Origin: Myxococcota bacterium
GTDB lineage: Bacteria; Myxococcota_A; Polyangia; Nannocystales; Nannocystaceae
Reading direction: 5' to 3'
NCBI GenBank assembly: GCA_039028615.1
Contig: JBCCHT010000023.1
Location: forward strand, 64,001 to 128,000
Length of the DNA stretch: 64,000 nucleotides
The notes under the pieces were generated by a model that was given only the letters and a program-made list of their open reading frames with translations, was not told the origin of the DNA and did not search any database. Positions 637 through 62,428 of this stretch are shown one piece after another (the first letter of the stretch is position 1; every line of letters starts with the position of its first letter). The translations under genes and the position numbers were made by a program.

Positions 637-780
637 TTCCCACAGGATTCCACGTTCCTACGTTTTTTTCACGGAACGGTGATCCATTCCGACGCTTTTA
701 CGAACCCCCCAACAGAGCCCGACCCCGAAGCGAGCCCTCCCCGCATTTCCGCAGCCAGCTGCGCCTCCCGGATCCCCTTC

Positions 781-1920: not shown

Positions 1921-1973
1921 GAGAAACAAAAGAAGCAATCGTATGGCCTCGTAGGAGGCAGCCACGTCCAGTC

Positions 1974-2018
1974 GGCCACTCGCGGGAAAAACCCTCCGCG
2001 AGTGGCCATCCTTTTTTT
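1974..2018 (+). terminator. Intrinsic terminator
   Basis: 12-bp stem GGCCACTCGCGG/CCGCGAGTGGCC followed by ATCC and a T7 run, downstream of 781..1920. Confidence 0.8.
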
Positions 2019-2033
2019 GCAAACGGTGCGCAG

Positions 2034-2684: not shown

Positions 2685-2756
2685 CGATCGACCGTACCGT
2701 AGCGCCGCCGCGTGTCACAACCGGCGCGCGATGCTACGGGCACCGCAGCTCGTCGC

Positions 2757-38741: not shown

Positions 38742-41684
38742 ATGCGCCCGCCCCCTCGACCCACCGCGCCGAACTCCGAGCTCGACGCCTTGCGTGCGCT
38801 CAAGCCGGTGGCGCAGCGCGGCGTCGAACGAGAAGCGGGGTTGGGTGCCGTGCTGGCGGTGGCCCTCGGGCACTCGCCGACTCCGCTGAGCGTGGGCCGC
38901 TTCTCGCTGCAGGAAAAGCTCGGCGAGGGTGGCATGGGCTCGGTGTTCGCGGCGTGGGATCCCGAGCTCGAGCGTCGGGTCGCGCTCAAGTTCCTGCACT
39001 CGGGGGACTCGGAGCGCGAGCGCGAGCACATGCTGGCCGAGGCCCGCGTCCTCGCGCGCTTTTCTCATCCGCACGTGGTGACCATCTACGACGTGGGCGT
39101 GGCCGATCGCCGCGTCTACTTCGCGATGGAGCTGGTCGAAGCGGGCAGCCTCGACGACTGGCTCGATGCGCACCCCGACGCGGGCGCGCCGACCCTGCTG
39201 CAGATCTTCGAGGACGCCGCCCGCGGGCTGGCAGCTGCTCACGCGCGGGGCTTGGTGCATCGCGACTTCAAGCCCCGCAACGTGCTCGTGGGAGACGACG
39301 GCCGGGCCCGGGTCAGCGACTTCGGCCTGGCCACGGAGGACGAAGGCGCTCACCCCACCGACGAGTCGCACCCCGCCTCGCCCACGGAACGAGCCGGCAC
39401 GCCCGACTACATGTCTCCGCAGCAGCGGCGGGGTGAACGAGTCGACGCCCGCGCCGACCAATACAGCTTCGCGCGGGCGCTCGAGCGCTGCCTCGAGCGG
39501 CTCGACGGGCCCGCGCTGCGGGGCCGATCGCGACGACGCCTCGACGCCCTGCTCACCCGGGCACTGGCCGAACAGCCCGAGGATCGCTTCGACTCGATGC
39601 AGGCGGTGATCACCGAGCTTCGCGCGATCCGCCGCCCCCGACGATGGCGACGTCGCCTGGCCCTGGCGGCGCTCGTACTGGGCGGCGGCGTGGTGGCCAT
39701 CGCTCGCAGTCCCGTCGATCCCCTCGACCAGTGCATGGACGGTGCGAACGCGCTGGCGGTGGCCACCGATCAGCAATGGCCCGCGATCACCGATGGCTTG
39801 TCGACGCAGCCGCTGGGCACCGACGCGCTCGCGGTCATCGAGGGCCCTCTACGCCGCTACGCCCAGACCTGGCGCACGGCGTGGACCGACGCGTGCCGAG
39901 CCACGTGGCGCGGCGGAACCCAATCGACGGCGGCGCTGGATCTGCGCCTGCAGTGCCTGGAGCAGCGCCGAACCCATATCCAGACCGTGCTCGAAGCGCT
40001 GACCCACCCCGACGAATCGCTCGCCGTGTCGGCTCCAGTCGTCGTGGGCACCCTGCCGGAGGTCGACGCCTGTGCCCGCGTCGATGTGCTCGCCCGGGAG
40101 GCACCCGAGCCCGATGCCTCGCCGCAGCGGGTCTTGGAGGTTCGTGCAGCCCAGCAACGCCTGGCTCGCGCCCGGGCTCGCTTCGAGGTCGGCGACTTCG
40201 ACGGGCTGAGCCCGCTCCTCGAGCAGGAGCTGGCCCGGGCGGAGCGACTCGACCACGCGCCCACCCTCGCGCAAGCGTTGTTGCTGCACGCCACGATGAT
40301 CGACGTGGGAGGCAATGCCGAACTGAAGGCCCCGCTGCGCCGCAGCTATGTGCTGGCCCAGCGCGCGGGTGACGATGCATCGGCCTTCGATGCCGCCCTC
40401 GAGATGTCGTCGTTCGCCGCCGACGTCGACGACGACTCCGCCCTCGCCGAGTTTTGGGCCGATACCGCCGAAGCGATCGCCGAGCGCATGGGGGCGACCG
40501 ACTGGGAGCGATTGCGGGTCGCCGATACGCGCGGGCGGGTGGCCATGACCACCCTCGACTACGCCGAAGCGGCCGCGCGCCTCGACGAAGCGAGCACCCT
40601 CGCCGCCACCATCTCCGACGCCCAGATCCCCCGCTTCATCGTGGAGATCAACCGCGCGCAGATGCTCGACCTGTCGGGGCACTCGGATAAAGCCCTCGAG
40701 GCCATCGAGTCCGTGCTCCCCGAGATGAAGGACAGGCTGGGTCCCTTCCACCCCTACGTCTTCAACGCCCGATCGACGCACGCCACGATCGCGCTGGGCC
40801 TCGAGCGACTCGCGGAGGCTCGGGCGGCGTACGAACAGCTACAGCGCGACTACCAGCGCTCGCCGCTACCCCATACCCGCGGCCGCATCGTGGTGGCCCT
40901 CAACCTCGGCGAGCTGGAGCGAAGGGCCGGCCGCCTCGAGCTGGCAGAGACCCACATTCGCACCGCGCTGGCGCTGCTCGACGAACACGAGGGCCCGGCT
41001 CGGCGCTACCGCACCGCCTACGAGAACCTCTCGGCGATCTTCGAGGCACAGGGGCGATACGAGGAAGCCCTCGATGCCCTGCGGCGCAGCGACGAGCACC
41101 TCCCCGCGGCAGAGCGAGAGCAACGGCCGGAGCTGGTGGCGCGCAGCCAGGCCACCGCCGGCATCATGCTCACTCGGCTGGGGCGCCTGGACGAAGCCGA
41201 GGACGCACTGGTCGCCGCTCAGGCGGCCGCCGACGAAGGGCTCGCCCCCGAGCACATCCACCGGGTCTATCTCGCCAACGCCTGGGCTCTGCTCGCGCTG
41301 CGGCGCGAGGACTGGACGACCGTGGCCGAGCATGCCCAGCGGGCCATCGATGGACTCGTCGCGACCGATGCGATCGAGCCCGACTTCTGGAGCTTCTCCG
41401 CGGCCATGCTGGCCGAAGCGCACCTCGAGCTGAACCAGATCGACCAAGCTCAGACGGCGCTCGACGAATCACCCGAGACGTCGCAGGAGCGACGGAGCAC
41501 CCTTGCGTGGACCCGATGTCTGCGGGCCCGCATCGCATGGGCACGCGGCGATCGAACGGCAGCCATCGATCACGCCCGCGCGGGAATCGAGGTACTGGCC
41601 GAGGCCGCCGGGGCCCAAGACCGCGAGCGACACGGGCGCTGCGTGCAGTGGCGAGACACCTACGAAGGCGCGTCGACGGGCTGA
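38742..41684 (+). CDS. Ser/Thr kinase - TM - Cys domain - TPR repeats
   Basis: GEGGMG, VALK, HRDFKPRN, DFG, GTPDYMSP; TPR repeats. Confidence 0.9.
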   Translation: MRPPPRPTAPNSELDALRALKPVAQRGVEREAGLGAVLAVALGHSPTPLSVGRFSLQEKLGEGGMGSVFAAWDPELERRVALKFLHSGDSEREREHMLAEARVLARFSHPHVVTIYDVGVADRRVYFAMELVEAGSLDDWLDAHPDAGAPTLLQIFEDAARGLAAAHARGLVHRDFKPRNVLVGDDGRARVSDFGLATEDEGAHPTDESHPASPTERAGTPDYMSPQQRRGERVDARADQYSFARALERCLERLDGPALRGRSRRRLDALLTRALAEQPEDRFDSMQAVITELRAIRRPRRWRRRLALAALVLGGGVVAIARSPVDPLDQCMDGANALAVATDQQWPAITDGLSTQPLGTDALAVIEGPLRRYAQTWRTAWTDACRATWRGGTQSTAALDLRLQCLEQRRTHIQTVLEALTHPDESLAVSAPVVVGTLPEVDACARVDVLAREAPEPDASPQRVLEVRAAQQRLARARARFEVGDFDGLSPLLEQELARAERLDHAPTLAQALLLHATMIDVGGNAELKAPLRRSYVLAQRAGDDASAFDAALEMSSFAADVDDDSALAEFWADTAEAIAERMGATDWERLRVADTRGRVAMTTLDYAEAAARLDEASTLAATISDAQIPRFIVEINRAQMLDLSGHSDKALEAIESVLPEMKDRLGPFHPYVFNARSTHATIALGLERLAEARAAYEQLQRDYQRSPLPHTRGRIVVALNLGELERRAGRLELAETHIRTALALLDEHEGPARRYRTAYENLSAIFEAQGRYEEALDALRRSDEHLPAAEREQRPELVARSQATAGIMLTRLGRLDEAEDALVAAQAAADEGLAPEHIHRVYLANAWALLALRREDWTTVAEHAQRAIDGLVATDAIEPDFWSFSAAMLAEAHLELNQIDQAQTALDESPETSQERRSTLAWTRCLRARIAWARGDRTAAIDHARAGIEVLAEAAGAQDRERHGRCVQWRDTYEGASTG

Positions 41685-42280
41685 ACCTCGGCCACCCAGC
41701 GCTCGACGACCTCCCGCACGCTCTGCTCGACCTCCGACGGCACCACCAGCGCCTCCATGGCCTCGCGCAGCAGCGTGCGAGCGCGATGCAGGCGGCTCTT
41801 GATCGTCCCGGCAGGCACCCCGAAGACCTCGGCCAGCTCGGGCCCGGACAGCTCCTCCCAGTACGTCAGCTCCAACGCCAGCTGCAGCTCGAGGGGCAGC
41901 GTCTGCAGGGCTTCGACCATGATCCGCTGCTCGCGACGATGCCACGCCGCCGTCGACACGCCCGGGTCGAGATCGCGGATCGACGCCACCTCGGGGTCCG
42001 GCTCGAGCATGCGAGCCTCGCGGGCCCGGGCGCGGATCTTCTCGAACAACACGTTGCGCGCGATGGCGAACAAGAACGCGCGAAAGCTGCCGCCCTTGTA
42101 GCGGTCGCGGGCCTCGGCACACCGCAGGAAGGTGCGCTGCACGAGGTCGTCGACATCACGATCGGTCTTGGTACGAAACAACCGGACGATCGCATCGTAG
42201 TAGCGCTCGATCAGCCGGGCTCCCGCCTGGTCGTCGCCGTCTCGCCACGCCAGGGCGAGGGGTGCATCGTCGTCCGACAC
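41660..42280 (-). CDS. ECF sigma factor (paralog 3), convergent with the kinase
   Basis: DDLVQRTFL..FRAFLFAIAR; LELTYWEEL..PAGTIKSRLHRAR; GTG 42280 inferred. Confidence 0.9.
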   Translation of the reverse strand: MSDDDAPLALAWRDGDDQAGARLIERYYDAIVRLFRTKTDRDVDDLVQRTFLRCAEARDRYKGGSFRAFLFAIARNVLFEKIRARAREARMLEPDPEVASIRDLDPGVSTAAWHRREQRIMVEALQTLPLELQLALELTYWEELSGPELAEVFGVPAGTIKSRLHRARTLLREAMEALVVPSEVEQSVREVVERWVAEVQPVDAPS

Positions 42281-42405
42281 GCGGCGCAACGTAGCAGATT
42301 GAAGTGCCCGACACCCCCTCGGCTCCTCGACGCGGTCGCTCGACCGGCGCCGTGGGGCACGCAAAGCGCAGGCGTCGTCGCCGGCGCCTGCGATACCCTC
42401 TCGCC

Positions 42406-44539: not shown

Positions 44540-45445
44540 ATGAGCGTGGAGGCGTTGCTCCTCAGTCACCCGCTGCTGGAAGCCCGGGTGGTCGACGCCG
44601 AGCTCAGGACCCGAGCGGTCGTGGCCCTCGAGGCCCTGCTCACCCAGGCGCGCGAACGTTGGCCGGGCGTCGAGCAGTCCGACGAGGCCTGCATCGCTCA
44701 CCTCGCCCCGCGGCTGTCGCCCGCCGGACCCTTGCACGAGGCCATCGAGGCGATTCGTGGAGACGACTTGGTCTTGGCGCTGGCCTGCGCACGAGGAGAC
44801 CGCCGCGCCATCGCCCATTTCGAACAGCTCGTCCGCAAGGACCTGGCCGCCATATTTCGTAGCCCGACCTCCCGCGGGGTCGACCCCGACGACCTGCGCC
44901 AGATCCTCAACCAGCGGTTCTTCGCCTCGCCCGGGGACCGCCCGCCTCGCATCCTCGAGTACTCCGGCCAAGGTCCTCTGCGCACCTGGGTGCGGGTCTC
45001 GGCCACGCGCGAGCGCATCAGCGCCGACCGCCGCAAGGGTGACAAGGCGGCGAGCCTGCCCGAGCGCGACGAACACATCATGAACGCGGCCGGAGGAGAC
45101 GACCCCGAGTTCGGGTTTCTCCAGGCGCACTACCGGGTCCACTTCAAAAGAGCCTTCGGCCGAGCGATGGGGGGTCTCACCGCGCGGCAACGCAACCTCC
45201 TGCGACTCACCACCTACGATGGACTAAGCGCCACCGACCTGAGCAAGCTCTACAACGTCGACCGCTCCACCTCCAAGCGGTGGCTCGTCAGCGCCCGCGC
45301 TCAGCTGCTCGCCGACACTCGCACCTCCCTGGCCGAGGACCTGGACGTGAGCATCGAAGAACTCGAGAGCATCCTACGACTCATCGAGAGTAACCTCGAA
45401 GTCAGCATGCAGCGACTCCTCGGCGAGGACAGCGACGACGAATAG
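44540..45445 (+). CDS. ECF sigma factor, Myxococcales family (paralog of 31778)
   Basis: DDLVLALACARGD, YSGQGPLRTWVRV, RQRNLLRL..DGL..YNVDRSTSKRWL. Confidence 0.85.
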   Translation: MSVEALLLSHPLLEARVVDAELRTRAVVALEALLTQARERWPGVEQSDEACIAHLAPRLSPAGPLHEAIEAIRGDDLVLALACARGDRRAIAHFEQLVRKDLAAIFRSPTSRGVDPDDLRQILNQRFFASPGDRPPRILEYSGQGPLRTWVRVSATRERISADRRKGDKAASLPERDEHIMNAAGGDDPEFGFLQAHYRVHFKRAFGRAMGGLTARQRNLLRLTTYDGLSATDLSKLYNVDRSTSKRWLVSARAQLLADTRTSLAEDLDVSIEELESILRLIESNLEVSMQRLLGEDSDDE

Positions 45446-45529
45446 GCGAGTTCGGCCGAGGCCCTCCAGTGCTCGCGCGACCGGTTCAGCCCCGAGCCCG
45501 CGCCGATTCGGGATATCATCGCCAGGCTG

Positions 45530-45988
45530 ATGAGCGGTCGCGGGATACTGGGTGGTGTGGTGATGCTCGTGGCGGCGTGCGCCAAGCCGCTGGCGCCCGC
45601 ACCGACGACTCCCCAAGTCGAGCCCGCCCCCGCCCCCGCCGAGCCGGACGACGCTCGGTCGTATCAAATGCCGCGAGACCCCAAGGGCGGATACGTCAGC
45701 GACGATCCCCCACCGCCACGCGACCCCGTGCCGGATCGTCCGCCACCTCCCCCGCACGATCCCCCACCGCCGCCGCAGGACCCCGAACAGCCCAAGTGCA
45801 CCCGCGCGCAGTTCGTGGTCGAGCGTTGCATCACGGGTGGCGCCCCTCGTCGAGGCCCCGACGGCCGCCTGGAGGGGCGCACGAGCTGCTCCACCCGCTG
45901 CGAAGCCAAGCCCCCGGCACCCCATCCGTCTCGACAGTGCCGAAAGATCGACGCACGCCACTATCAGTGCAAGTCGTTCGCCCCCTAG
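45530..45988 (+). CDS. Pro-rich lipoprotein with C-terminal Cys domain
   Basis: VAAC lipobox; DPPPP repeats; six C-terminal Cys. Confidence 0.6.
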   Translation: MSGRGILGGVVMLVAACAKPLAPAPTTPQVEPAPAPAEPDDARSYQMPRDPKGGYVSDDPPPPRDPVPDRPPPPPHDPPPPPQDPEQPKCTRAQFVVERCITGGAPRRGPDGRLEGRTSCSTRCEAKPPAPHPSRQCRKIDARHYQCKSFAP

Positions 45989-46127
45989 ACCGCCCGCGTA
46001 CGACGTACGACGGCGTTGTCTCGGTTCTTTTCAAAAAAGTCGATCGCAGCGCAATCGATTCGCCGAGTCGTTGCACTTCATCGCGCCGAGCCACCGAAAG
46101 CCGCTCGGCACGAGGAAAGCCAACGTC

Positions 46128-46922
46128 ATGCATCGCCATCTCGTCATCACCGCCTTGGTCGGGCTGCTGCTGCCCTGGTCTTCGCCTGCGCAGGCGGAGT
46201 GTGGGACCTACTCCATCACCACTTGCTCCGAGGGGAACTTCGTTCCTTCGGGTGGATCGGGATGGGCCTGCAATCCCACCGTTACCGTGCAATCGGGCAC
46301 CTGCTACGCCGACGGCACAGTCGTCGAAAACCCCACCACCACCGTCGTGGGCAACGACCCCGCACATCCCTCCAGCCTGACCTGCAACTACTGGAGCTCA
46401 CCGCAGGTCACCAACTACTGCGGCGTTCACTATCCCCAGCCGCTCGAGGAAATCACGGGGTGCTGTGCCTGCACCCCCACCACCTGCGAGGCGGCAGGAA
46501 TCGAGTGCGGCACCATCGACGATGGCTGCGGCGGCACGCTCGACTGTGGCACCTGCGACGGCACGGGCATCTGCGGTGCGCTGCAGCAAAACATGTGCTG
46601 CGAGCCCTTCGGCTGTCACGACTACGGCCTCGAGTGCGGCACCGCGGACGACGGCTGCGGCGGCACGCTCAACTGCGGCGAGTGCACGGACCCGCTCGAG
46701 CCCTGCTACGAGTACGTCGGCACCCCCTGCGTCATCCTCGGGGGCATCCTCTGCGACGAAGAGTTCATGGAGGTCGACACGCTCGGCAGCTATGTGCACG
46801 CGCCCGGTGAGGACTACGCGACCTGCGAGCCCAACGACAAGGAGTGGTACGTCCAGTACTGCGAGGAGCAGCCGCTCGAGGTGCAATGGATCAGCGCCCC
46901 CGAAGAAGACTGCCTGCCCTAG
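46128..46922 (+). CDS. Secreted Cys-rich repeat protein
   Basis: Signal peptide ending AQA; two ECGTxDDGCGGTLxCGxC repeats; GAGGA SD. Confidence 0.75.
   Translation: MHRHLVITALVGLLLPWSSPAQAECGTYSITTCSEGNFVPSGGSGWACNPTVTVQSGTCYADGTVVENPTTTVVGNDPAHPSSLTCNYWSSPQVTNYCGVHYPQPLEEITGCCACTPTTCEAAGIECGTIDDGCGGTLDCGTCDGTGICGALQQNMCCEPFGCHDYGLECGTADDGCGGTLNCGECTDPLEPCYEYVGTPCVILGGILCDEEFMEVDTLGSYVHAPGEDYATCEPNDKEWYVQYCEEQPLEVQWISAPEEDCLP
46500..46686 (+). repeat. Two copies of an approximately 55-bp coding repeat
   Basis: TCGAGTGCGGCACC..GACGA(T/C)GGCTGCGGCGGCACGCTC at about 46501 and 46631. Confidence 0.8.
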
Positions 46923-47029
46923 TCGCCGGCGGATGGCGATTTGCTCGGGCTTCCCGTGCCACGGCCGTTGCCGCAGTGCGCTAGCATGACTGCGCGGCGA
47001 CTGAATCCGAGCACGGGAGGCCACGCGCG

Positions 47030-50000
47030 ATGTCGGACGGAGAACCCCAACCCTTTCACGAGACGAAAGAATGGACGGCGCTTCGTACCCTCATCCGCCG
47101 CGGCCAGAACAATCCCGCCGATCGACCGATCCTCTGGGTCGGGGCGGGGCTGTCCATCGCCGCCGGGTACAAGTCCACCCAACAGCTCGTGAACACGCTC
47201 GCCGAGGCGAGCTTGGTTCCGCTCCCTCGCTACGACCCCCATGCCGCGCCGAACGACGTGAGGGTCATCCGAAACTACGACGGTTGGGTCGACCTGTTTT
47301 GCCGAGAAAACTCCCCCGGAGAACTCGTCGGCCCCCTCAGCCGCGCGTTCGGGGCCGACCACCCGCCCACGCCCATGCATCGGCGCTTGATGTCGATCCC
47401 GTGGCACTCGGTGATCACCACCAACTACGACCTCACGCTCGAGAAAGCGCTCTCCGAGCTCGGGCTTCCCCACGTCCCCGTGACGCTCGAGCAGAACATC
47501 GAGCTGGTCGATGACGAGCGGCTCCGCGTGGTGCACATCCACGGCAGCGTCAACGACATGGCCAACGCCGTGTTCTCCAGCCGCTCCTACGACGAGTTCG
47601 CGACGAAGCACGCCATCCCCGATTCCCGGCTGAGCATCGAGCTTCTGCAGCGCCCCGTGGTGTTCATGGGCTGCTCGATGACCGATCGCCGCATCTTGGA
47701 GCTGATGCGCTCCTATCGAACCCACGGCATGATCGACCGCCGTCGCTTCACCGCGTGCATCATGACCGAAGGCGACTGGGGCTACCTGTCCGACGATCAG
47801 CGGGCGTTCCTCACCGACTGCCACATTCGACCGATCCTCTTGCAATCGCACAACGAGTTGCCGGGGGCGGTGGCTCGGCTCGCGCCCGAGCTGGCAGCCG
47901 TACCCGCGTACGAGCTCCATCCCATCAAGGAGGAGCTGCGAGCCCTCGAGGACATCGTGTTCGGCCAGCTCGGCCCGCTCGTGCTGCGCCTGGTGGGGGA
48001 GCTGTGGGCATCTCCGCTGTTGCGCTCGCGGGAGTCGTCGGTCTCGGAGACGCTCGCCGAGCTGGGCGGGCGGCGCCTGACTCGGGCCTTTGGTGCGCTG
48101 TTCTTCCCCGTCGAGCGCCCGCTGTTCGAGATCCTCCAGCAACGACTCGAGCTGCATGCCTCGAGCGACGGCGGCACGGATCCGCTCTCTCGGAAGGACC
48201 TGCTCGCCGCGGCCATCGCCACCGCGGAGCGTCTATCCGAGCGGCTCCAGAACCTGCGTCTGACCCGAGCCTTCGCCGAACGCCACGGCTGGAATGCGAA
48301 GGCGGCGAGCACCGACCTCGCGGCTTCAGCCGACGGCGAAGCACGGGAAGACGAAGTGTCGCAGCTTTCGCTCGTGCTGGGCCTGATCTTCCTGTGCACG
48401 TCCACCCTCCCTCCCCTGTCCCGAGACAACGCCGAGACGCTGATCCATCAGCCCGAGGACACGCTCGCTTCGCTCGAGCAGCGCCTGTCCAACATCGCCA
48501 AGCTGACCGAGGTGGGCGGCTCCCGAGGGTACAAGAACACACAGACCACCTATCTCGAAGCGTTCGAGAACAAGCACGGCGGCGTGGGGCTCATCAACTC
48601 GCGGCTCGACGATCCCCTGCGGACGCTGCCGGTCTCGCAGGTCTTCGTTCCCCCGCGGTGCCAGGTCTGGGCCACCTCTTCCACTCACCTGGAGCCCAAG
48701 GAGATCGAGGCCGGTAACCTCCTCGAGCATTGTCGCAACCGTGAGCTGGTCGTCGTGTTCGCCGACGCGGGCTTCGGCAAGACGACGCTGCTGCAATGGC
48801 TGTCGATTCGAGCCATGGGCTTCACCGACGCCGACCGCGAGCGCAGCGACCAGCGGAAGCTCGTCCCCTTCCTCGTGCAGCTGCGCTTCTTCGCCGAGAC
48901 GGACTTCCCCCGCCTCGCCGACCTGGGCACGACCCTCGGCCTCGAACCGACGAAGGAACTCCGAGCGTGGACCGCCGCCGTGTTCGAGGAGGGCTCTGGG
49001 TTGATCCTGCTGGACGGCCTCGATGAGCTCCCCAAGGAGCGCCGCAAGGCCTTCGCGACATGGCTGCGCGAGCTGAGGGGCGAGGTCGAGGCCCTCGCAC
49101 CGAAGCGAAGCTCGCGCTCGGAGGATGGCGGAGCCGGTCGACCGCCGATCGTCCTGACCCTGCGGCCGTCGGCCGAGGCCAGCATGCAGGGCACCCTGCG
49201 GCAGTTCCCCCATGTGGAGCTTCAGCGGCTCGAACGTGGGCAGATCTTCACGCTCATCAAGCGATGGCATGCCGCGATCTCGTTGCTGGTGGAGAGCGCG
49301 GCCAAGTCGAACGTCCGCGCCGCCCACCAGCGCCTGGTCGCCCAGCTCAAGAGCGACTCGGCCCTGGCCAAGCTGGCCGCGAACCCGCTGATGTGTGCCC
49401 TTTTGTGCTCGATGAATTACCTCGAGCGCGGGCGGCTTCCGACTCGTGACTACGAGCTGTGCAAGGAGGGCATTCGCATCCTGCTGCACGATCGCGACGT
49501 CAAAAAGGAGGTCCCGTTCTCCGGGGACGCCTCACCGCTGCGGCCGATCCTCGCCGAACGAACGCTCGGCAGCGCCGCGATGTGGATGCAGTGCGAGAAC
49601 CGTATCTCGATTCACCGCAGCGAGATGCTCGAGGTCATCAAGGAACGCACCGCCCTGTGGGACCACGAGAACCGGCGCTCTCCCGAAGAAGTCCTCCAAC
49701 ACCTGCTCGAGCGTTCGGGCATCGTCCGCGAGCCCGGGGACGGCGAGATCATCTTCACGCATCGGCTGTTTCAGGAGTACCTCGCCGCGAGCCGGCTCAT
49801 GGGCGACCGCATCGAGCAGCGCGGGGTCAAGGTGCTGATCGACAATTCCGCCAACGACTTCTGGGCCAAGACGATCACGATGGCCGCCGCCATCGCGGGC
49901 GCCAACCGAGGCAACAAGCTGGTCCTCGGCTTGCTCAACAAGCATGGCCGGCTGGCCAAAGGCACAGAGAGAGCACGGCTCGGCCTGTTGCTCATCGAGT

Positions 50001-50734
50001 GTGCCTCCCGACTCCCCGAGAAGCTCCCCGCCGTCCAGGACGGTCTGCGGCAGATCGTGAAGACCTACTTGCCTCCCGCCGACAGAGAGACGGCCAAAGC
50101 CATCGTGCAGTGTGGCGATCTCGCCGTTCCGCTGCTGGCAAAGAAAGCCTCGCACTCCGAATCGCAGAAGCTCGGATGCGCCTCGTGTCTGCTGGACATC
50201 GGTACCCGGAGCGCACACGAAGAGCTGCTGCCCTACCTCAGGGCCACCGACCAGGAGCCACACAGCGGTCACTACTGCACGGAGCTGAGCTTCCTTATTG
50301 GGCACCAGGGCCATCAAGGCTGCAAACGCCTGCTCAACGACCTTCCGCTCGCGGACCTTCTCACCTTGCCCGAGGTGATCCGCATCGCGCTCGCACGGGC
50401 TTCGATGGACTTTCGCGTCGCACGGGGACTCGCCTGGGCGCACGAGTACACCACCCTCGAGCTTCGCGATGCCGACATCGACGAGATCCTCGGACTCGAC
50501 GCACTGGAGAACCTCGAGCGCCTCGACATCAACGGCAGCTCGATCCGAAGCCTCGAAGGCATCGCCGAACTGAAGCGGCTGACCTACATCGACTGCTCCG
50601 ATACCGAGCTTTCGAGCGACACGATCGACGAACTCGCCCGCCTGCCCCGCACCGTCGGGATCCTGGCCATCGACACGCCAGGCGCATCCGCAATCCCCCA
50701 CGCGGTCACCGACAACCCGGTCGAGACGGGATGA
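47030..50734 (+). CDS. SIR2-like - NACHT NTPase - LRR protein (bacterial NLR-like, probable anti-phage)
   Basis: WVGAGLS, TTNYD, HIHG, FMGCS (SIR2-like); ADAGFGKTT, LILLDGLDE, NPLMCALL, FTHRLFQEYLAA (NACHT/WHD); LERLDING..LEGIAELKRLTYIDCSDT (LRR); SD GGGAGG. Confidence 0.9.
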   Translation: MSDGEPQPFHETKEWTALRTLIRRGQNNPADRPILWVGAGLSIAAGYKSTQQLVNTLAEASLVPLPRYDPHAAPNDVRVIRNYDGWVDLFCRENSPGELVGPLSRAFGADHPPTPMHRRLMSIPWHSVITTNYDLTLEKALSELGLPHVPVTLEQNIELVDDERLRVVHIHGSVNDMANAVFSSRSYDEFATKHAIPDSRLSIELLQRPVVFMGCSMTDRRILELMRSYRTHGMIDRRRFTACIMTEGDWGYLSDDQRAFLTDCHIRPILLQSHNELPGAVARLAPELAAVPAYELHPIKEELRALEDIVFGQLGPLVLRLVGELWASPLLRSRESSVSETLAELGGRRLTRAFGALFFPVERPLFEILQQRLELHASSDGGTDPLSRKDLLAAAIATAERLSERLQNLRLTRAFAERHGWNAKAASTDLAASADGEAREDEVSQLSLVLGLIFLCTSTLPPLSRDNAETLIHQPEDTLASLEQRLSNIAKLTEVGGSRGYKNTQTTYLEAFENKHGGVGLINSRLDDPLRTLPVSQVFVPPRCQVWATSSTHLEPKEIEAGNLLEHCRNRELVVVFADAGFGKTTLLQWLSIRAMGFTDADRERSDQRKLVPFLVQLRFFAETDFPRLADLGTTLGLEPTKELRAWTAAVFEEGSGLILLDGLDELPKERRKAFATWLRELRGEVEALAPKRSSRSEDGGAGRPPIVLTLRPSAEASMQGTLRQFPHVELQRLERGQIFTLIKRWHAAISLLVESAAKSNVRAAHQRLVAQLKSDSALAKLAANPLMCALLCSMNYLERGRLPTRDYELCKEGIRILLHDRDVKKEVPFSGDASPLRPILAERTLGSAAMWMQCENRISIHRSEMLEVIKERTALWDHENRRSPEEVLQHLLERSGIVREPGDGEIIFTHRLFQEYLAASRLMGDRIEQRGVKVLIDNSANDFWAKTITMAAAIAGANRGNKLVLGLLNKHGRLAKGTERARLGLLLIECASRLPEKLPAVQDGLRQIVKTYLPPADRETAKAIVQCGDLAVPLLAKKASHSESQKLGCASCLLDIGTRSAHEELLPYLRATDQEPHSGHYCTELSFLIGHQGHQGCKRLLNDLPLADLLTLPEVIRIALARASMDFRVARGLAWAHEYTTLELRDADIDEILGLDALENLERLDINGSSIRSLEGIAELKRLTYIDCSDTELSSDTIDELARLPRTVGILAIDTPGASAIPHAVTDNPVETG

Positions 50735-50741
50735 GGCTCGC

Positions 50742-51368
50742 GTGACGTCATCGATGGAGGGAAACGACGAGGAGCTGCTGGTGCGATGGCGCGAGGGCGA
50801 TCAGCTCGCGGGAAGTGAGCTGCTCTCCCGCTATTTCTCGCCGCTGTACGACTTCTTCGCGACCAAGATCGACACGGGCATCGACGACCTCATCCAGCGC
50901 ACCATGCTGGCCTGCGTGCAGGCCCGCGACCGAATCCGCGACGCGCCCAATTTCCGGGCCTTCGTCTACGGCGTGGCGCGCCATGAGCTCTACGGGTGGT
51001 TTCGCGATCGCGCCCGCGGGGCACGGGTGCTCGACTTCGAGGCCATCTCCATCGCCGACCTCGGCTCCACGCCCAGCCGACGACTGGCGGGCAAGCAAGA
51101 GCAACGGCTCATGCTCGAGGCGCTGCGGCGGATCCCGCTCGATCATCAAATCTGCCTGGAGCTGTTCTACTGGGAAGGCATGAGCGGCCCGGGCCTGGCG
51201 GCGGTGCTCGACGTGCCCGAAGGCACCGCCCGTACTCGCCTGCGGCGCGCTCGTCAGCTGCTACTACTCCAGCTCGAAGCGCTCGCCGAGACGCCCGAGG
51301 TCCTGCAGAGCACCCGGGACGGCTTGGAGCGCTGGGCCTCGGAACTCCGCGCCCGCGTTCGATCGTAG
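50742..51368 (+). CDS. ECF sigma factor (paralog 4), convergent with the kinase
   Basis: DDLIQRTML..FRAFVYGVAR; LELFYWEGM..PEGTARTRLRRAR; alternative ATG at 50754. Confidence 0.9.
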   Translation: MTSSMEGNDEELLVRWREGDQLAGSELLSRYFSPLYDFFATKIDTGIDDLIQRTMLACVQARDRIRDAPNFRAFVYGVARHELYGWFRDRARGARVLDFEAISIADLGSTPSRRLAGKQEQRLMLEALRRIPLDHQICLELFYWEGMSGPGLAAVLDVPEGTARTRLRRARQLLLLQLEALAETPEVLQSTRDGLERWASELRARVRS

Positions 51369-51386
51369 GGGGCGCTGCTCCCGAGT

Positions 51387-54203
51387 TCACTCGGCGTCCA
51401 GCGGCACCCCGTGCGCGCGAGCCCACGGTGTCACTCGATCGATGGGGTCGTCCCGCCACGGCACCGTCTTCGACAGCTCCCGAGCGCGACGCAACTGCGC
51501 GATCGCCTGGTCGGGTGCCTCGCCGAGCAACCACATCGCCTTGCCCAGGTCGACTTCGCAGAGCACCCGCTGAACCGGCGCGCCCCCGCTCGCTTCGAGC
51601 ACCTCGATGCAACGACGCGAGGCCTCGACCGCGGCATCGAAACGATCGAGGGCCAGGGACGCGGTCCCGAGGTTGACCAGAATCGGCACGAGCTGAGCGT
51701 GATTGGGGCCGAGCGCAGCCACGAGCGTGTCGTGGGCAGCGTGCAGCTCGTCCACCGCGACCGCAGGCTCTCCCATCTCGAGCAAGGTGCGACCGATGGC
51801 CAAGCGCACCAGCGCGACGTCGGGGTGCTCGGGCCCGAGCGCGGCCAGCTGAATCTCCAATGCTCGCCGAGACGCCGCCAACGACTCGGGGAAGCGCTCG
51901 AGGGCCGACAAGACCAGCGCCAGGTTGCCCAGGCCGTTGCCGACCCGCGGATGCTCGGGACCGAGACTGCGGGTCCAGACCTCCACCGCACGCTCGAACG
52001 GAGCGACCGCGCCCTCGAGATCCCCCATGGACGCCAGCGCCGTGCCGAGCGAGTTGCTGGCCATGGCCACATCGGGATGGGTCGGCGAGCGCGAGCGCCC
52101 GAAGATCTCCAGCGCGGTGCGAGCGTGCTCGGCCGAGCGTTCGAAACGGGCCTCGGCCAGCTCGACGGTCGCCAGGTTGTTGTGCACCAAGCCGACCCGC
52201 GGATGCGATGCACCCAGCACACGACCGTACTGTGCCCGCGCCTGCTCGAGCTGGTCCCGCGCCTCTTCGGTCCGACCGAGTTCACGCAGGGTGGTGGCCA
52301 TGGTCACCCGCAGGGCGCCGATGCGGGCGTCGGCCTCGGGATAGACCCTCAGCGCACGCTGGAGCGCGAGTTCGTGCTGCTGCTGCGCGTCGTCGTAGTG
52401 CCCCCGCGTGAACAGGATGTTGCCGCGGGCCCGATGGAGCTCGGCATGCAGCACATCGGAATCGTCCATCTTGCCCACGACGGGCGTCGCCAGCGTCGCC
52501 CACTCGAGCCCGGCATCGGCGTCGGCGAGCCGATAGCCGAGCAGCTCCGCGAGCAAGACCATGCCGCGCGCTCGCGTCCGCAGGTCGTCCGCGCGCTCGG
52601 CCGCCCCGATCGCCGCGATGAGCTCGGTGCGGGCGCTCTCGAAGTCGGCTTCATCGAGCAGCGCGATGGCCCGGGCTTCGTGCAGGCGCGCGCTCAGCCG
52701 TGCATCGGGCTCGAAGCCGTCGGCCGGCTCTCGTTCGAGCACGGTCAACGCTTCCGCGGGCCGCCCCGCGGCCGACAGCGCCCGTGCGCGATAGATCTGC
52801 TGCTGGAGCGCCTCCGTCTGCGGGCTCGAAGTCTCGGACGCCGACGACGAGGTCTCGTCTCGACACGAACTCGCGGGCGCCAGCTGCTGCACGGCCAACG
52901 TGGCCCGAGACGCGGCATCGGGCAACGACTCGGCCAGGACATCGAGCTGTACGCCGAGCGCCTCCAGCCGCTGGTCGAGGCACGTCAGGCGACTTTGGAG
53001 CGCGGCGCTGGACTGAACGCCATCGACATGGGTGGCGCGACAGGCATCGTCCAGCTCGGCCGTCCAGGCCTGACCGTAGCCTTCGAGCGCCCGGGTGGTG
53101 GCCTCGAGGACTTCGTCCGCACGCGCGGGAGCATCGGAGCGCAAGCGAGCCTCGAGCCCTTCGCTCCGCGCCGTGGTCCAGGTCTCGTCCCAGTGGCGCT
53201 GGCGAGCCCGGCAAGCCTCGAGCGGCGAGTCGCTCGACCCGAGCCACCATGTGCCTCCCGCCAGCGCCAGCGTGGCGAACCCGAGCCCGAGCCATCGACC
53301 ATGTCGCGACGGTCGCAGAGCCTGGGCGATCGCCTCGAGCAGCGCATCCATCGATTCGAAGCGAGCCTCGCGGTCGCGCGCCAAACCGCGGCGCAGCGCG
53401 GCATCGAGTGCCGTCGGCCACGGCGAGGACGAGGTCGCGGCGCCCTCGGTGCCCGGCCGATGCCCGTGCAAGGCCTCGTAGAGCGCGACACAGTACGCGT
53501 ACTGATCCGAGCGCGGATCGGCGTCCCCTTCCCATTGCTCCGGCGACATATAGGCGGGAGTCCCGAGCACGGCTGGCCCTTCGGTCGAAGCCTCCGCGGC
53601 GAGCCCCGCCAACCCAAAGTCGGCCACCAACACCCGTCCGTCGTCACCGAGGAGCACATTGCCCGGCTTGAAGTCGCGGTGGATCAACCCGCTGCGATGC
53701 GCCGCGGCCAAGCCATGGCCCGCGGCCACGAACACCTCCACGACCTCCCGCCACGGCCGTTGCTCATCCAGCCAATGCCGAAGGTCCACGCCCTCCACCA
53801 GCTCCATGACCAGGTAGCCCTGGCCCTCGAACTCGCCGAACTCGTGCACCGTCACCACGTTGGGATGCGTGAGCCGAGCCATCGCCCGCGCCTCGCGACG
53901 AATCCGTCGGCGCCTCGGCTCCTCGTCGGGCCCCGCCCCCCAGCGCAGCAGCTTCAGTGCGACCTGGCGATCGAGCTCGGGGTCGTGCGCGCGATAGACC
54001 TCGCCCATCGCCCCCTGGCCGATGCGCTCGTGAACGGTGAAGCGCCCGAGGGTCTGCGAGGGTCGCTCATGGCCGAACATCCGGTGCTGGAGCTCGGCGT
54101 GGATCCGAGCGGCCTCGAGCCCCTGGCCCTGCCGCAGCTGTGCGATCCCTTCTCGCACTCGGCTGCCATCCGCCGCGGCCGTCGAAACACTCCCCGATGG
54201 CAT
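51387..54203 (-). CDS. Ser/Thr kinase - TM - Cys domain - TPR repeats
   Basis: GQGAMG, VALK, HRDFKPGN, DFG, GTPAYMSPE; GPEHP TPR repeats; start 54203 inferred. Confidence 0.92.
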   Translation of the reverse strand: MPSGSVSTAAADGSRVREGIAQLRQGQGLEAARIHAELQHRMFGHERPSQTLGRFTVHERIGQGAMGEVYRAHDPELDRQVALKLLRWGAGPDEEPRRRRIRREARAMARLTHPNVVTVHEFGEFEGQGYLVMELVEGVDLRHWLDEQRPWREVVEVFVAAGHGLAAAHRSGLIHRDFKPGNVLLGDDGRVLVADFGLAGLAAEASTEGPAVLGTPAYMSPEQWEGDADPRSDQYAYCVALYEALHGHRPGTEGAATSSSPWPTALDAALRRGLARDREARFESMDALLEAIAQALRPSRHGRWLGLGFATLALAGGTWWLGSSDSPLEACRARQRHWDETWTTARSEGLEARLRSDAPARADEVLEATTRALEGYGQAWTAELDDACRATHVDGVQSSAALQSRLTCLDQRLEALGVQLDVLAESLPDAASRATLAVQQLAPASSCRDETSSSASETSSPQTEALQQQIYRARALSAAGRPAEALTVLEREPADGFEPDARLSARLHEARAIALLDEADFESARTELIAAIGAAERADDLRTRARGMVLLAELLGYRLADADAGLEWATLATPVVGKMDDSDVLHAELHRARGNILFTRGHYDDAQQQHELALQRALRVYPEADARIGALRVTMATTLRELGRTEEARDQLEQARAQYGRVLGASHPRVGLVHNNLATVELAEARFERSAEHARTALEIFGRSRSPTHPDVAMASNSLGTALASMGDLEGAVAPFERAVEVWTRSLGPEHPRVGNGLGNLALVLSALERFPESLAASRRALEIQLAALGPEHPDVALVRLAIGRTLLEMGEPAVAVDELHAAHDTLVAALGPNHAQLVPILVNLGTASLALDRFDAAVEASRRCIEVLEASGGAPVQRVLCEVDLGKAMWLLGEAPDQAIAQLRRARELSKTVPWRDDPIDRVTPWARAHGVPLDAE

Positions 54204-54316
54204 CGCAAAGACCAGTGTAGCGGGGTCACGGCTCGCCCGGCGCCGCTTCGACCAAACCGTCGATCCGCGCCACCAGCCAACGTTCGCGGTTCCGTGCTCG
54301 GGCTCGTCGGGGGCGC

Positions 54317-55282
54317 TCAGACCTCGAAGAGCCGCATGGCCATGGAGACCATTTGATCGATGTCTTCGCGGCCTTGGACCTCCAGGCCGAACTGCTGAAG
54401 CATCGGCGCCATGTTCCGACGCACCATCGCCACCTCGGTCGGTGTGGTGTCGTAGCCTTCGAATGGCCCGCTCAACGCCTGCGCCGACGCCCGCTGGGTG
54501 GCTGCGACGACGTAGTTCCGAATCGCCGCCATCTTGTCGTAGTCGAGCCGGTCCGGGGTGTCGGTGGGCATGTGGTAGTGCTCCCAGCGAGCGCACGTGA
54601 GAAACAAGTAGGGCCGCTGGTCGAGCCGAAATGCATGGTAGTCGCTGAGATCACCGATGTAGCGGGTCAACAGCGGCACCGCACGAACGCCTCGGACTTC
54701 TGCTCCCGCCTCGATCACGGGCTCGAGCCCCGGGTCGCTCTCCATACCCGTCACGAACAACAGGTCGCCACATCCGGGGATCGGGACCTCATGGCCGCAC
54801 AGGTCGAGCACGATGGCGCAGTGCACCGGCCCTTTTCGCTGAGCGCGATAGAAGTACGTCGACCCCATGTTCGGGGTCAGGAAGCGCGGTGGCTCCTCGC
54901 CGTCGAAGAACGCGAACACCACGTCACGCTCGAGCCGAGCCGAGCGCAGCGGCTTCACCGAGGACAACGAGATCGCGATGGCAGCGGCGTTGTCATCGGC
55001 GCCCGGCTGCCGGCCACACGTGTCGTAGTGCGCCGCCAGCAGCATCGGAGGCAGGCTGGGGTCACGACCGGGGAGTCGACCCAGCACGTTCACCTGCCCC
55101 GAGTTTCGCGGGCCGTAGGGCCATTCGAACGCGTCCCCATAGGGCTGCAACCCGAGCCTCTGCATCCGCTCGAGCAACCATGCCCGGGCCGCCCGATGCC
55201 CCTTGCTCCCCACGACCCGCTCACCCGGCTCGGTCAGCGCTTCGACATCCGCCCGTAGGGTTTCGAGCAGCTCGTACGACAT
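54317..55282 (-). CDS. M28 family metallopeptidase
   Basis: AHYD, GADDNAA, FDGEE, SDY..F, YHMPTD. Confidence 0.88.
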   Translation of the reverse strand: MSYELLETLRADVEALTEPGERVVGSKGHRAARAWLLERMQRLGLQPYGDAFEWPYGPRNSGQVNVLGRLPGRDPSLPPMLLAAHYDTCGRQPGADDNAAAIAISLSSVKPLRSARLERDVVFAFFDGEEPPRFLTPNMGSTYFYRAQRKGPVHCAIVLDLCGHEVPIPGCGDLLFVTGMESDPGLEPVIEAGAEVRGVRAVPLLTRYIGDLSDYHAFRLDQRPYLFLTCARWEHYHMPTDTPDRLDYDKMAAIRNYVVAATQRASAQALSGPFEGYDTTPTEVAMVRRNMAPMLQQFGLEVQGREDIDQMVSMAMRLFEV

Positions 55283-55317
55283 GGCCGAGACCATACGCCC
55301 CCCGCCGAGATCCGCAA

Positions 55318-56916
55318 CTACTGCACGCCGGCCGACGGGATCCGCGGGAGCTCGAACGCGAAGTCCCAGGCGTCGCCACCCGTCGTCCACCCGAGCACCA
55401 TCGGCGCGGCGTTGGGATCGGAGAAGTGCCCGTCGATCGAGCTGGCCGGCTGCGCCCCGTTGCCGTCGGCCCCTGGCCATACGACCTCGTTGTAGAAGCA
55501 GCTCTCGGCCACCGCGTGGGTGCTGAAGGGCACACCACCGCCCGGGCCCGAAGCCGTGCCCACGCTGAAGCTGGAGACGATGGCCGGCGGCGTGTCCCAG
55601 TCGGGATAGGCGGAAAACGCCCCGGCGACGGGTCCGACGGCAGGAGCATCGTGGGTGCCTTCGGCGTGACCCGAGGCATAACAACGCTCCACGATCTGAT
55701 CGCCCAGCGCGTTCGGCAGCGGATCGAAGTGCGCGACGAGTCCCCCAGCAACGCCCGCATGGACGTCGCCCGTGGCGTAGCAATCGTGAATCGTATAGGC
55801 GGTCAGGCCCTCGCTGCCTCCCGTGAGGCCCCCGCCCACGGAGACCGACCAGGGAAAGCGCGGCACCGCGGTGACCTGCCCCGTCGCGTAGGACCACTCG
55901 AGGGTGCCCGAACCGACGGAGCCCACGAGCCCACCCGCGAGATCCTGCGCGGTCACGTCTCCGGTGGCAAAGCAGTGATCGACGTTGCCGCCCTGCGCCG
56001 CACCGACCAGGCCACCGCCCACCCGATGGCCATCACCGAGCACATCGCCGTGGGCCTCGCAGTGCCGCAGCTGCCCAGTCAGGGCCCCGACCAAGCCGCC
56101 GATGAAGATGACGCTATGCTCGATCTCCGGGTTGAGCTGGACGTCCCCCCGCGAGGTCGCATTCTCCACGAGGCCGCCATACACCCGCCCCGCGAGCCCT
56201 CCGGTGTGGCTTCCGCCCGAGACCAAGACCCCGACCTGAGCCCCATCCACCGTGGACTGCCGCAGCTCTCCGGCCAGGCCTCCGACCTCCTGCAGACCGG
56301 TCACCGATCCGAGCTCGACCCCGACGTCGATCAGCGTGACGTCCTGGCCGTAGCCGATCATCGCCCCGACCCACCCCGACTCGGGCCGATCGACGGAGAC
56401 CTGCACGAGCGTGAGACTCTCGATGTGCGCCCCCTCGGCCCAACCGAAGAGCCCGTAGGCGAAGGGCACGAGGTCTTGCTCGAGCCGGAGCCCGATGATG
56501 TCGAAGCCCTGCCCGTCGTACGAACCGCTGAAGGGGACCTCTTGAGTGCCGATGACAAACTCGCCGCTGCCGTATTCGTACTGCGGCCACAAGTCGATGT
56601 CGTTGCACTGCACGAAGTGGCTCGCCCACGAGGCGGGGTGTGCCGCGAGATCGGCCAGCTGGTGGTGGCTGTAGATCTCGAAGGGCGAGTCGACGGTGCC
56701 CGCCCCGACCGCATCGTGGGCCACGGGGCTGACCTGGCCCGTACACGGGGTGCCGCCCCCTTCCTCGCCACCGCCCCTCGACCCCTCGACCGCATCGATC
56801 CCGGACCGGAACTCCGCGGGCGAATCGGAATCGCAGCCGCTCGATGCCACGAAACCAGGGAGCGCACACGATAGAGTGAGGACGACGAAGCGAGGCTGCA
56901 CGCCGGGTATTGACAC
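55318..56916 (-). CDS. Secreted/lipoprotein with GLUG-type beta-helical repeats
   Basis: FSGSYDGQGFDI, GLFG, repeated VGGLVG and CYATGDV units; SSGC lipobox-like. Confidence 0.8.
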   Translation of the reverse strand: MSIPGVQPRFVVLTLSCALPGFVASSGCDSDSPAEFRSGIDAVEGSRGGGEEGGGTPCTGQVSPVAHDAVGAGTVDSPFEIYSHHQLADLAAHPASWASHFVQCNDIDLWPQYEYGSGEFVIGTQEVPFSGSYDGQGFDIIGLRLEQDLVPFAYGLFGWAEGAHIESLTLVQVSVDRPESGWVGAMIGYGQDVTLIDVGVELGSVTGLQEVGGLAGELRQSTVDGAQVGVLVSGGSHTGGLAGRVYGGLVENATSRGDVQLNPEIEHSVIFIGGLVGALTGQLRHCEAHGDVLGDGHRVGGGLVGAAQGGNVDHCFATGDVTAQDLAGGLVGSVGSGTLEWSYATGQVTAVPRFPWSVSVGGGLTGGSEGLTAYTIHDCYATGDVHAGVAGGLVAHFDPLPNALGDQIVERCYASGHAEGTHDAPAVGPVAGAFSAYPDWDTPPAIVSSFSVGTASGPGGGVPFSTHAVAESCFYNEVVWPGADGNGAQPASSIDGHFSDPNAAPMVLGWTTGGDAWDFAFELPRIPSAGVQ

Positions 56917-61900: not shown

Positions 61901-62428
61901 AGCTACATCGGTGTCGTCGGCACCCCGCGCCTGGCCGACGACCCCGCCGATCACATCCGCGGCTGGGACTTTCGGATCCGCGGCTTCACCCGCCCCCACG
62001 TGCAGTTCGGCTTCGACTTCAACCGCCAGGTGTGGCGGGCCCCCTCCAGCCCCCGGCAGACGAACCTCAACGTCAACCGCATGGAGTTCGTGTTCGGCGT
62101 CGACGTGCTGCCCCTGCCCTACGACTGGCGGGTGCGACCGGCGTTGGTGCCCTACGCGGGCCTCGGCCTGGCGTGGGGCAAGGTCCGCGACACCGCCCCC
62201 GACTCCTTCTCCCGCAGCGACGACCTCGTGGGCGGAGCCGGGGCGACCTTCGGCAGCGACTTGATCCTCTTCATCCGCCTCGGCGACCGCTTCCTGGTCG
62301 GCCTGCGCGGAGGCATCAGCAAGCCACTGTACCGACTCCGTGCGGGCGGCGAGCGCTTGGACTTCGACGACGAATTTCCCCGAGCCCTGCGCTGGCAGGT
62401 GGGGCTCGACTTTGGAGCAACCCCATGA
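58910..62428 (+). CDS. Exported TPR-CHAT (caspase-like) protease with C-terminal predicted outer-membrane beta-barrel
   Basis: Signal peptide (..VADA); TPRs; SPDGMLNLLP, HIATHGFF, VLSACETG, SLWQVDD, HPFYWAAF; Pro linker; eight amphipathic strands ending WQVGLDF. Confidence 0.88.
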   Translation: MLKGLVHAAFGAWLFMAGASVADARTTTAPTNEEIEDAVEHAALALGNYENNDWEAAAEHGQAALEVLGPRFGWDEPKVVQPVLALTIDSLMKLGRNAEADVLIAKLKATQAAKPKPTPEPSSAPAPEPEPKESALDQANRLATEAFLAFVQGRNDEARDKGQRAVTELESLDPDAKSLPQMRSLLAILYERRLEYGKAEALLEANLAKAHASGDTVAQARWTDALARTALKQGKADEAEDGFGRALELGREADDLASQADAVGGLGDVASFREQSTQAIAEYRRALAMHERRRDFGASHLVSPLHDLGVALELAGQFEESEAVLTRAQAIATRSFGADTPATWSTAMSLGRLYRSKGDHDRAVKLFEDTLTAQEAKLPPTSPGIAASLNHLAETMWARGDAPPRIVGLATRAAEIHEREMTTVLRSGTEGQKRAYLERYQSGTDRIISYAVRDASTDPGAVRLGATTVIRRKGRLLDAVSDQFALLRSRADDDTRAKLDRLAEVQAQISALALRGPDENLDAAAHTELSNQLRAELEQLDDALADVVPPDERSTVQLEDVARRLGSDEALVEFVLYRPFDVQYKSMLTAFGTEHYAAFVVHGDGSTAVVDLGEAARIDEAVVAYRRALADPRTEPERIGRQLHGWLMAKIEPALGGKTTVYVSPDGMLNLLPLAALVDADRRYLVERYQFTYLSSGRDLLRLARSELPREGPLLVGSPEFSHAGGTTSTGTRSVGLADLIFPPLPGTAAELDALAKVLPNASVRREDEATESAIKQAQGPLVLHIATHGFFLADERAGTEGTRGVTYVKGDFVPPSKAENPLIRSGLALAGANLRTGPDGQDGILTALELASTDLHGTELVVLSACETGVGEVRNGDGVYGLRRALVIAGSRSQIMSLWQVDDEATRDLMTKFYRRLDRGKGRSEALRSVQRKMLRNKATAHPFYWAAFIPSGDPGSMKLKAPKPQPPRPGKVGGSGELRDYWSDRFDEPMMLFGGSYIGVVGTPRLADDPADHIRGWDFRIRGFTRPHVQFGFDFNRQVWRAPSSPRQTNLNVNRMEFVFGVDVLPLPYDWRVRPALVPYAGLGLAWGKVRDTAPDSFSRSDDLVGGAGATFGSDLILFIRLGDRFLVGLRGGISKPLYRLRAGGERLDFDDEFPRALRWQVGLDFGATP

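Follow-up and report, generated by a model that had tools for sequence, protein, structure and literature searches.

Can a single bacterial gene carry the effector-NACHT-leucine-rich repeat (LRR) layout of eukaryotic nucleotide-binding, leucine-rich repeat receptors (NLRs), and what might such a protein do for its host? The question is raised by a gene at 47030-50734 on the forward strand of a 64,000-nucleotide stretch of DNA (the window) from a Myxococcota bacterium of the family Nannocystaceae (assembly GCA_039028615.1, contig JBCCHT010000023.1, positions 64,001 to 128,000). The gene encodes one intact protein in which, judging by sequence comparison, a SIR2 effector has been set ahead of a common NNH1-NACHT-LRR chassis. 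This protein is probably a single-gene, NAD+-depleting abortive defence system, a stand-alone bacterial NACHT (bNACHT) receptor and executioner whose trigger and activity are inferred. Its parts, in window coordinates and with the supporting evidence in brackets, are as follows.

47030-50734, + strand: whole gene, 1234 amino acids (aa), ordered SIR2, NNH1-like, NACHT (nucleotide-binding domain, NBD; helical domain 1, HD1; winged-helix domain, WHD), helical domain 2 (HD2), short LRR (open reading frame, Pfam, AlphaFold2)
47015-47020, + strand: Shine-Dalgarno-like GGGAGG, 9 nucleotides (nt) 5' of the ATG (direct sequence reading; equivalent start in relatives)
47057-47899, + strand: immune-type SIR2 (SIRim) domain, aa 10-290, with N132 at 47423-47425 and H171 at 47540-47542 (Pfam SIR2_2, ThsA alignment, fold)
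47918-48511, + strand: diverged NNH1-like all-helical domain, aa 297-494, the region that the original prediction left unassigned (hhalign; relatives match PF22733)
48527-49219, + strand: NACHT NBD with Walker A at aa 578-586, Walker B at aa 660-666 and sensor-1 R712 (Pfam, motif alignment)
49220-49804, + strand: HD1 and WHD, including H911 and L913 (alignment, model, fold matches)
49805-50446, + strand: HD2 and subsequent helical region, aa 926-1139 (AlphaFold2, conserved positions)
50447-50677, + strand: short internalin-type LRR of three repeats and a cap strand, aa 1140-1216 (Pfam, model, repeat reading)

The SIR2-NACHT-LRR observation is confirmed for a single intact protein. The open frame contains no internal stops, and every motif that had been named from the letters alone is located within it: GAGLS (aa 38), TTNYD (130) and HIHG (169) of the N-terminal SIR2 domain, Walker A ADAGFGKTT (578), Walker B LLDGLDE (660) and the winged-helix motif FTHRLFQEY (909). 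The NLR-like order of effector, NACHT and LRR in one chain is likewise borne out by the intact frame, by Pfam and by structure prediction. Pfam SIR2_2 matches aa 127-269 (73.9 bits, cut-off 24.5) and NACHT matches aa 574-748 (48.4 bits, cut-off 26.7), with an LRR_4 match at aa 1161-1201 that falls under its cut-off (21 bits, cut-off 27). An AlphaFold2 model of residues 1-1200, built from an 84-row alignment in which two SIR2 fragments failed to align with the SIR2 columns, has a mean predicted local distance difference test score (pLDDT) of 85.7, compared to only 36.5 from the single sequence. Mis-assembly of the gene is unsupported, as an independently assembled 46-kb contig shows no differences to the window over 44819-56000; because this contig probably derives from the same sample, the agreement excludes mis-assembly only.

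The N-terminal domain has the hallmarks of an immune-type SIR2, namely the GxG and xxNxD motifs (named in the accessible part of bioRxiv 10.1101/2024.09.18.613514), the catalytic Asn and His, and a ThsA-like fold. In alignments N132 and H171 occupy the catalytic positions of ThsA and DSR2, and both are invariant in all nine aligned family members. The partner of N132 in ThsA is N112, a residue replaced by Ala in the 8BTO construct. The equivalent DSR2 residues, N133 and H171, are needed for NADase function, and their mutation abolishes activity (PMC11087589, as far as its available text goes). Modelled residues 1-291 superpose on SeThsA with a Z score of 25.9 and a root-mean-square deviation (rmsd) of 2.6 over 263 aligned residues; the model reaches Z 22.8 on KomC, whereas the classical sirtuins listed score no higher than 13.9. 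Zinc-binding deacylase sirtuins carry Cys pairs, and these pairs are not present in the SIR2 domain sequence. Alignment and fold thus bear out an immune-type SIR2 with both catalytic residues, and upon assembly this domain would hydrolyse NAD+.

The middle of the protein had been described as about 230 residues without assignment and possibly a new domain. The helical region is real, spanning aa 297-494 in the AlphaFold2 model, but it can be assigned. No Pfam family matches aa 281-537 of the window protein, which scores 1.1 bits on a profile of canonical NNH1 domains, equal to its reversed control; the window sequence alone reaches only 6.9% in hhalign against NNH1, and an Atlas search with this region alone gave no usable match. 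The connection comes from relatives. A six-row profile aligns with 130 canonical NNH1 N-termini over 170 columns at 97.8% (E 8.4e-13), compared to 0.6% for the reversed control, and a profile of five relatives scores 33.1 bits on residues 300-495, where the maximum of 500 shuffles is 9.9. All five relatives outscore their own reversed controls on the canonical profile, and a member of the marine group described below (L075) passes PF22733 outright (35.1 bits, cut-off 27). The best NACHT relatives also have NNH1 (PF22733) as their N-terminus. Because relatives link the region to canonical NNH1 transitively, it is a diverged NNH1 homologue, which we call NNH1-like, as it lacks Pfam membership of its own. 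The idea of a new domain is ruled out by this profile-profile homology together with the relatives' profile and the L075 match.

The NACHT module retains the residues expected of a bNACHT switch: the Walker A lysine K584, the Walker B DGxDE residues D662, D665 and E666, sensor-1 R712, P786 of HD1 and the winged-helix His H911. The last of these is equivalent to H443 of NLRC4; changing this His leads to hyperactivation of NLRC4, bNACHT25 and bNACHT16, and it made bNACHT16, which bears LRRs, toxic (bioRxiv 10.1101/2022.07.19.500537, in the text available). Two deviations in the module are G578A at the first Walker A Gly and T913L. Residues 500-1200 find their closest folds in NLRC4, NLRP3 and NOD2, and the HD2 region (926-1075) deviates at one of 13 family-conserved positions. 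At the C-terminus, three repeats of 22-24 aa occupy residues 1140-1207 and are followed by a last strand, with model strands at 1142, 1164 and 1186 before the model ends at residue 1200. Where three to four LRRs were counted previously, there are three and a cap strand. A chimera with another NACHT clade is not indicated, since all five segments match the NNH1-NACHT-LRR set best among the proteins compared.

Is this layout an isolated accident? The same four-part arrangement occurs in at least 13 other genes, mostly from marine Alteromonadales, and these counts are lower bounds because the genome scan used two short patterns. The members are P0039; P0040 (cluster mate WP_101217446.1, Pseudoalteromonas) and P0041 (Psychrosphaera); L024, L027, L030, L031 and L034; the Thalassomonas-like copies L146, L148 and L149; and two incomplete genes, L025 (frameshifted) and L075 (cut inside SIR2). 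Identity to the window protein is 24-28% across eight aligned members. The intact marine relatives are proteins of 1358-1527 aa with longer LRRs and gammaproteobacterial hosts. One relative differs from its cluster mate by a single 22-aa LRR insertion. In L025 (9330-12618, Pseudoalteromonas shioyasakiensis), the frameshift lies just past SIR2 and leaves a 319-aa stand-alone SIR2 frame.

The SIR2-bearing layout is a minority form. Among 149 NNH1-NACHT-LRR representatives examined, 142 have the NNH1 region, only seven carry more than 40 aa ahead of it, and three have SIR2. In a tree of the NACHT region (41 rows chosen from 91), the window protein falls inside the NNH1-NACHT-LRR clade with support of 100/100 against six outgroup rows, and the marine SIR2 proteins are sister (100/99) to three proteins with a different N-terminus. 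An RxxxxH motif, which we take to be HEPN-like, is present in two of those three and in a full-length cluster mate of the third; this label has no Pfam support. Monophyly of all nine SIR2 rows is rejected (approximately unbiased test, p-AU 0.001), which implies that the chassis has exchanged its effector at least once, with the qualification that this grouping was tested after a quick tree had been seen and that the window row is a long branch. A joint clade of SIR2 and HEPN-like rows is neither supported nor rejected by the topology test. The same SIR2 subfamily (99/97) is also found on CHAT-STAND-TPR (tetratricopeptide repeat) proteins, two of them in the host genome. A SIR2-NNH1-NACHT-FGS protein, L111 (3962-7867), has a SIR2 domain outside this subfamily and is an independent SIR2 fusion on the NNH1-NACHT chassis with another sensor.

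The two CHAT-STAND proteins of the host are divergent SIR2-CHAT protease-STAND paralogues lying 7 kb apart at one locus (L005, 10495-14982 on the + strand and 1-3507 on the - strand). The complete paralogue has 1495 aa and C-terminal TPRs; the other, truncated where the contig stops, has GEG instead of GAG. The layout, a receptor with tandem NADase and caspase-like effectors, recurs in P0213, L058, L026 and others. Further extensions ahead of NNH1 were seen in the wider family. One of about 380 aa with a HEPN-like RN-x3-H motif, which has no Pfam or PADLOC match, is found in the sister NNH1-NACHT-LRR clade (P0042, P0045, P0201 and L028:5336-9798). The L028 gene is split over two frames and lies beside two adenylate/guanylate cyclase genes. 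Others that carry no annotation (L039:8273-9500, L115:4612-5100 and residues 1-235 of P0153) are possible effectors.

How much of this was already known? Both SIR2-NACHT and NACHT-LRR arrangements are published, and the window protein is a rare member of the known bNACHT class. In its accessible text, the bNACHT preprint (Kibby et al., bioRxiv 10.1101/2022.07.19.500537) includes SIR2 among the effectors and LRRs among the sensors, names NNH domains as well, and notes that effectors are highly variable; the exact SIR2-NNH1-NACHT-LRR layout may already be contained in its figures or in Table S1. Since the preprint already places such effectors and sensors on bacterial NACHTs, novelty of principle does not survive. 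A literature search that left most subscription papers outside its reach found no publication that describes the SIR2-NNH1-NACHT-LRR layout in a bacterium. The bNACHTs, especially LRR-bearing bNACHT16, share with the window protein a single gene, an N-terminal effector, NACHT, C-terminal repeats and the winged-helix His. The window protein differs from them in having SIR2 ahead of NNH1, only three LRRs, and Leu at the position equivalent to S445/T584. The NNH1-NACHT-LRR proteins (PF22733, PF05729 and LRR; named matches mostly from Actinomycetota) are colinear across NNH1, NACHT, HD2 and LRR and provide the best matches for every segment tested, although NNH1 and the leader that follows it are highly diverged in the window protein.

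Likeness to other known systems is partial. Avs5 (AVAST type 5) joins a SIR2 NADase to a STAND NTPase in one chain and is activated by assembly (PMC11897194). The available text of that paper describes no NNH1 or LRR, and it describes the Avs5 nucleotide-binding oligomerisation domain as inactive; superposition of the whole chains gives an rmsd of more than 19 Å. PADLOC 2.0 includes AVAST models, and none is among the 12 PADLOC and four NCBIfam matches of the window protein. ThsA and DSR2 share the SIR2 NADase fold and the catalytic Asn and His, with matches that end at about residue 285. The Dsr2 model reaches only 33.6 bits against a cut-off of 1400 at residues 110-193, and the window protein, which carries a NACHT module, is not a DSR1/DSR2 system. 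The Thoeris ThsA match is confined to residues 35-231, and no TIR (ThsB) gene is present among the open reading frames (ORFs) scanned at 34.6-62.4 kb. SIRim-NACHT-repeat proteins are known from fungi and animals (clade A); those named in the accessible part of bioRxiv 10.1101/2024.09.18.613514 have ankyrin or TPR repeats, whereas the window protein has LRRs. Animal NLRC4, NLRP3 and NOD2 share the NACHT-LRR fold at an identity of only 12-18%. Animal NLRs use CARD or PYD adaptors and have long LRRs.

The distribution of the gene is patchy. Some match is found in 16 of 73 genomes of the host's family, yet no match spanning SIR2 and NACHT occurs in the 72 other family genomes (best 82 bits). The same is true of 400 other genomes of the phylum, in a scan that scored two candidates per genome and found single-module matches in three. 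The flanking 17 kb are not kept as a block in any of five genus relatives. The gene is neither core nor syntenic in its relatives, so the original prediction passes on this genomic point. Elsewhere, full-length matches were found in six of 201 genomes and a broken gene in one of 137, both counts including the seed genome. Gene G+C is below that of the rest of the locus in five of six marine loci. Next-door genes there include IS200 or IS110 transposases (L024, L031) and nucleases (L030, L034), with nothing defence-like next door in L025 and L027; four of the six contigs end inside or just past the gene.

What would such a protein do? The domain order, the catalytic and nucleotide-binding residues, the folds, the patchy distribution and the effector exchange are observed; phage sensing, oligomerisation and NAD+ depletion we infer because of DSR2, Avs5 and the bNACHTs. 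In the resting state, His911 of the winged helix would keep the NACHT module shut with ADP bound. HD2 and the short LRR might then sense either a product of the phage or an alteration that the phage brings about in a host protein or nucleotide pool. Because there are only three LRRs, indirect (guard-type) sensing would be no less likely than direct binding of a ligand. Nucleotide exchange would permit NACHT oligomerisation and the clustering of SIR2 domains into an active multimer, with NNH1 most likely the helical spacer or adaptor that connects the switch to the enzyme. Hydrolysis of NAD+ would presumably cause the infected cell to arrest or die. In favour of this reading are the ThsA-like SIR2 fold with its catalytic pair, the NLR-like NACHT-LRR fold, the toxic His mutant of bNACHT16 and the assembly-activated NADase of Avs5. 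The accessory distribution, the lower G+C and the transposase or nuclease neighbours of marine copies, the HEPN-like N-terminus on the sister clade and the LRR insertion in one relative also speak for it.

Several observations weigh against this proposal, and some of them favour the rather unlikely alternative that the family works while this copy, its switch and sensor eroded, is a relic under relaxed constraint or in decay that has ceased to respond. By sequence, this is the most diverged copy of the family, with a shrunken LRR and eroded motifs adjacent to the switch. Its NACHT branch is 2.32 compared to a median of 0.63. Among 74 rows, it is the most deviant in residues 296-569, where 11 of 16 conserved positions are changed (median 1), mostly in the NNH1-to-NBD leader, whose residues 500-545 are strongly diverged; it is joint most deviant in residues 570-925, where nine of 55 are changed (median 1.5). 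Leu913 occupies a position that is Thr or Ser in 138 of 139 matched relatives, and Pro substitution at the equivalent position activates bNACHT16 (bioRxiv 10.1101/2022.07.19.500537, in its accessible text). Ala578 replaces a Walker A Gly kept in 134 of 135. The LRR_4 score compares with 49-121 bits in intact marine relatives, and one relative is frameshifted. On the other side, the 3.7-kb frame is open with native codon bias in every domain, the model folds confidently, and K584, D662/D665/E666, R712, P786, H911, N132 and H171 are all kept. The nearest relative, P0039, has the same short LRR and an equally deviant NACHT, suggesting an old sub-lineage over decay. With the core residues kept and P0039 so similar, decay is possible and not favoured. 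Also counting against the defence proposal, a relative is syntenic and under purifying selection in four close genomes, with nonsynonymous substitution rates (dN) far below synonymous rates (dS) in every domain. The LRR is included and, although mostly the least identical part, does not have a raised dN/dS; there is thus no arms-race signature. ORFs at 34.6-62.4 kb yield only generic kinase and TPR matches and no defence families, so there is no defence island. Codon usage is native (G+C at third codon positions 0.857, median 0.869) and gives no sign of recent transfer. Seven loci from viral contigs hold SIR2 fragments only, with no full-length relative, and none of the curated defence models spans the entire protein: PADLOC and NCBIfam matches are confined to SIR2 or to short stretches of NACHT. 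Neither recent transfer nor a mobile element is indicated by any codon, repeat or promoter/terminator signal.

The lack of a defence island and the long residence would suit an NAD+-depleting death switch not aimed at phage in a multicellular myxobacterium, acting in kin or non-self rejection, in developmental death, or in guarding the cell from effectors that competitors or predators deploy. The host is myxobacterial-looking (a 12.3-Mb genome of 68% G+C, with a Myxococcales-family sigma gene near the locus) and has four NACHT matches over the Pfam cut-off besides the two SIR2-CHAT-STAND paralogues, and multiple NACHTs have been linked to multicellularity (bioRxiv 10.1101/2022.07.19.500537, available text). 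However, most relatives are in unicellular marine Alteromonadales, the gene is not found in the host's relatives as a developmental gene would be, and the tested bNACHT and SIR2-STAND proteins in the texts consulted are anti-phage; this explanation is therefore unlikely, though slightly less so than a decayed relic. A non-lethal SIR2 output, either ADP-ribose signalling or protein deacylation that feeds a pair of extracytoplasmic function (ECF) sigma factor and Ser/Thr kinase, is very improbable. It draws on a same-strand ECF sigma frame that starts 7-19 nt past the stop codon and is followed by a convergent kinase-TPR gene. This sigma factor has at least 91 matches at E<=1e-20 in the host genome, so adjacency is expected by chance, and an operon with it is unsupported. 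Furthermore, no marine locus has an ECF gene directly downstream where downstream DNA is visible, and the SIR2 domain folds like ThsA and lacks the Cys pairs of zinc-binding deacylases. Only a little less improbable is a helper role. NNH1 would be a general docking platform, mostly bare with its effector in trans and fused in a few cases (SIR2 at least twice independently, HEPN-like once). This copy, whose LRR is minimal and whose leader is rewired, would act as a helper executioner with a reduced sensor, set off by other STAND receptors in the host genome and possibly co-assembling with the SIR2 domains, which belong to the same subfamily, of the SIR2-CHAT-STAND paralogues. SIR2 identity to those paralogues is only 33%, which counts against such an arrangement; if true, bacteria would have a sensor/helper NLR network comparable to those of plants. 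The defence reading thus remains the one we prefer.

Other genes near the locus were noted in passing. ECF sigma and Ser/Thr kinase-TPR genes lie at 50754-51368 and 51387-54596, and at 38742-41684 and 41660-42364. The gene directly upstream (46128-46922) encodes a 264-aa protein that is rich in Cys and probably secreted; it contains an internal repeat of 43 aa (129 nt) and has no Pfam match. A TPR-CHAT protease gene (58910-62428, 1172 aa) lies about 8 kb downstream. Elsewhere in the host genome, four further NACHT-type matches with other layouts occur at C26:140851, C1:666558, C85:11578 and C60:24814; going by their sequence ends alone, these have TIR-like or phosphoesterase-like starts, one kinase start, and FGS-like or WD40-like ends.

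The window protein brings neither a new domain nor a new principle, and its intact marine relatives are better suited to testing than this diverged copy. If active, the protein would serve as a convenient reporter for the NNH1-NACHT-LRR clade, which is large and obscure in function and whose triggers could be screened by toxicity. It would also unite in one bacterial chain the full NADase-NACHT-LRR logic known from eukaryotic NLRs, with NAD+ as a simple readout.

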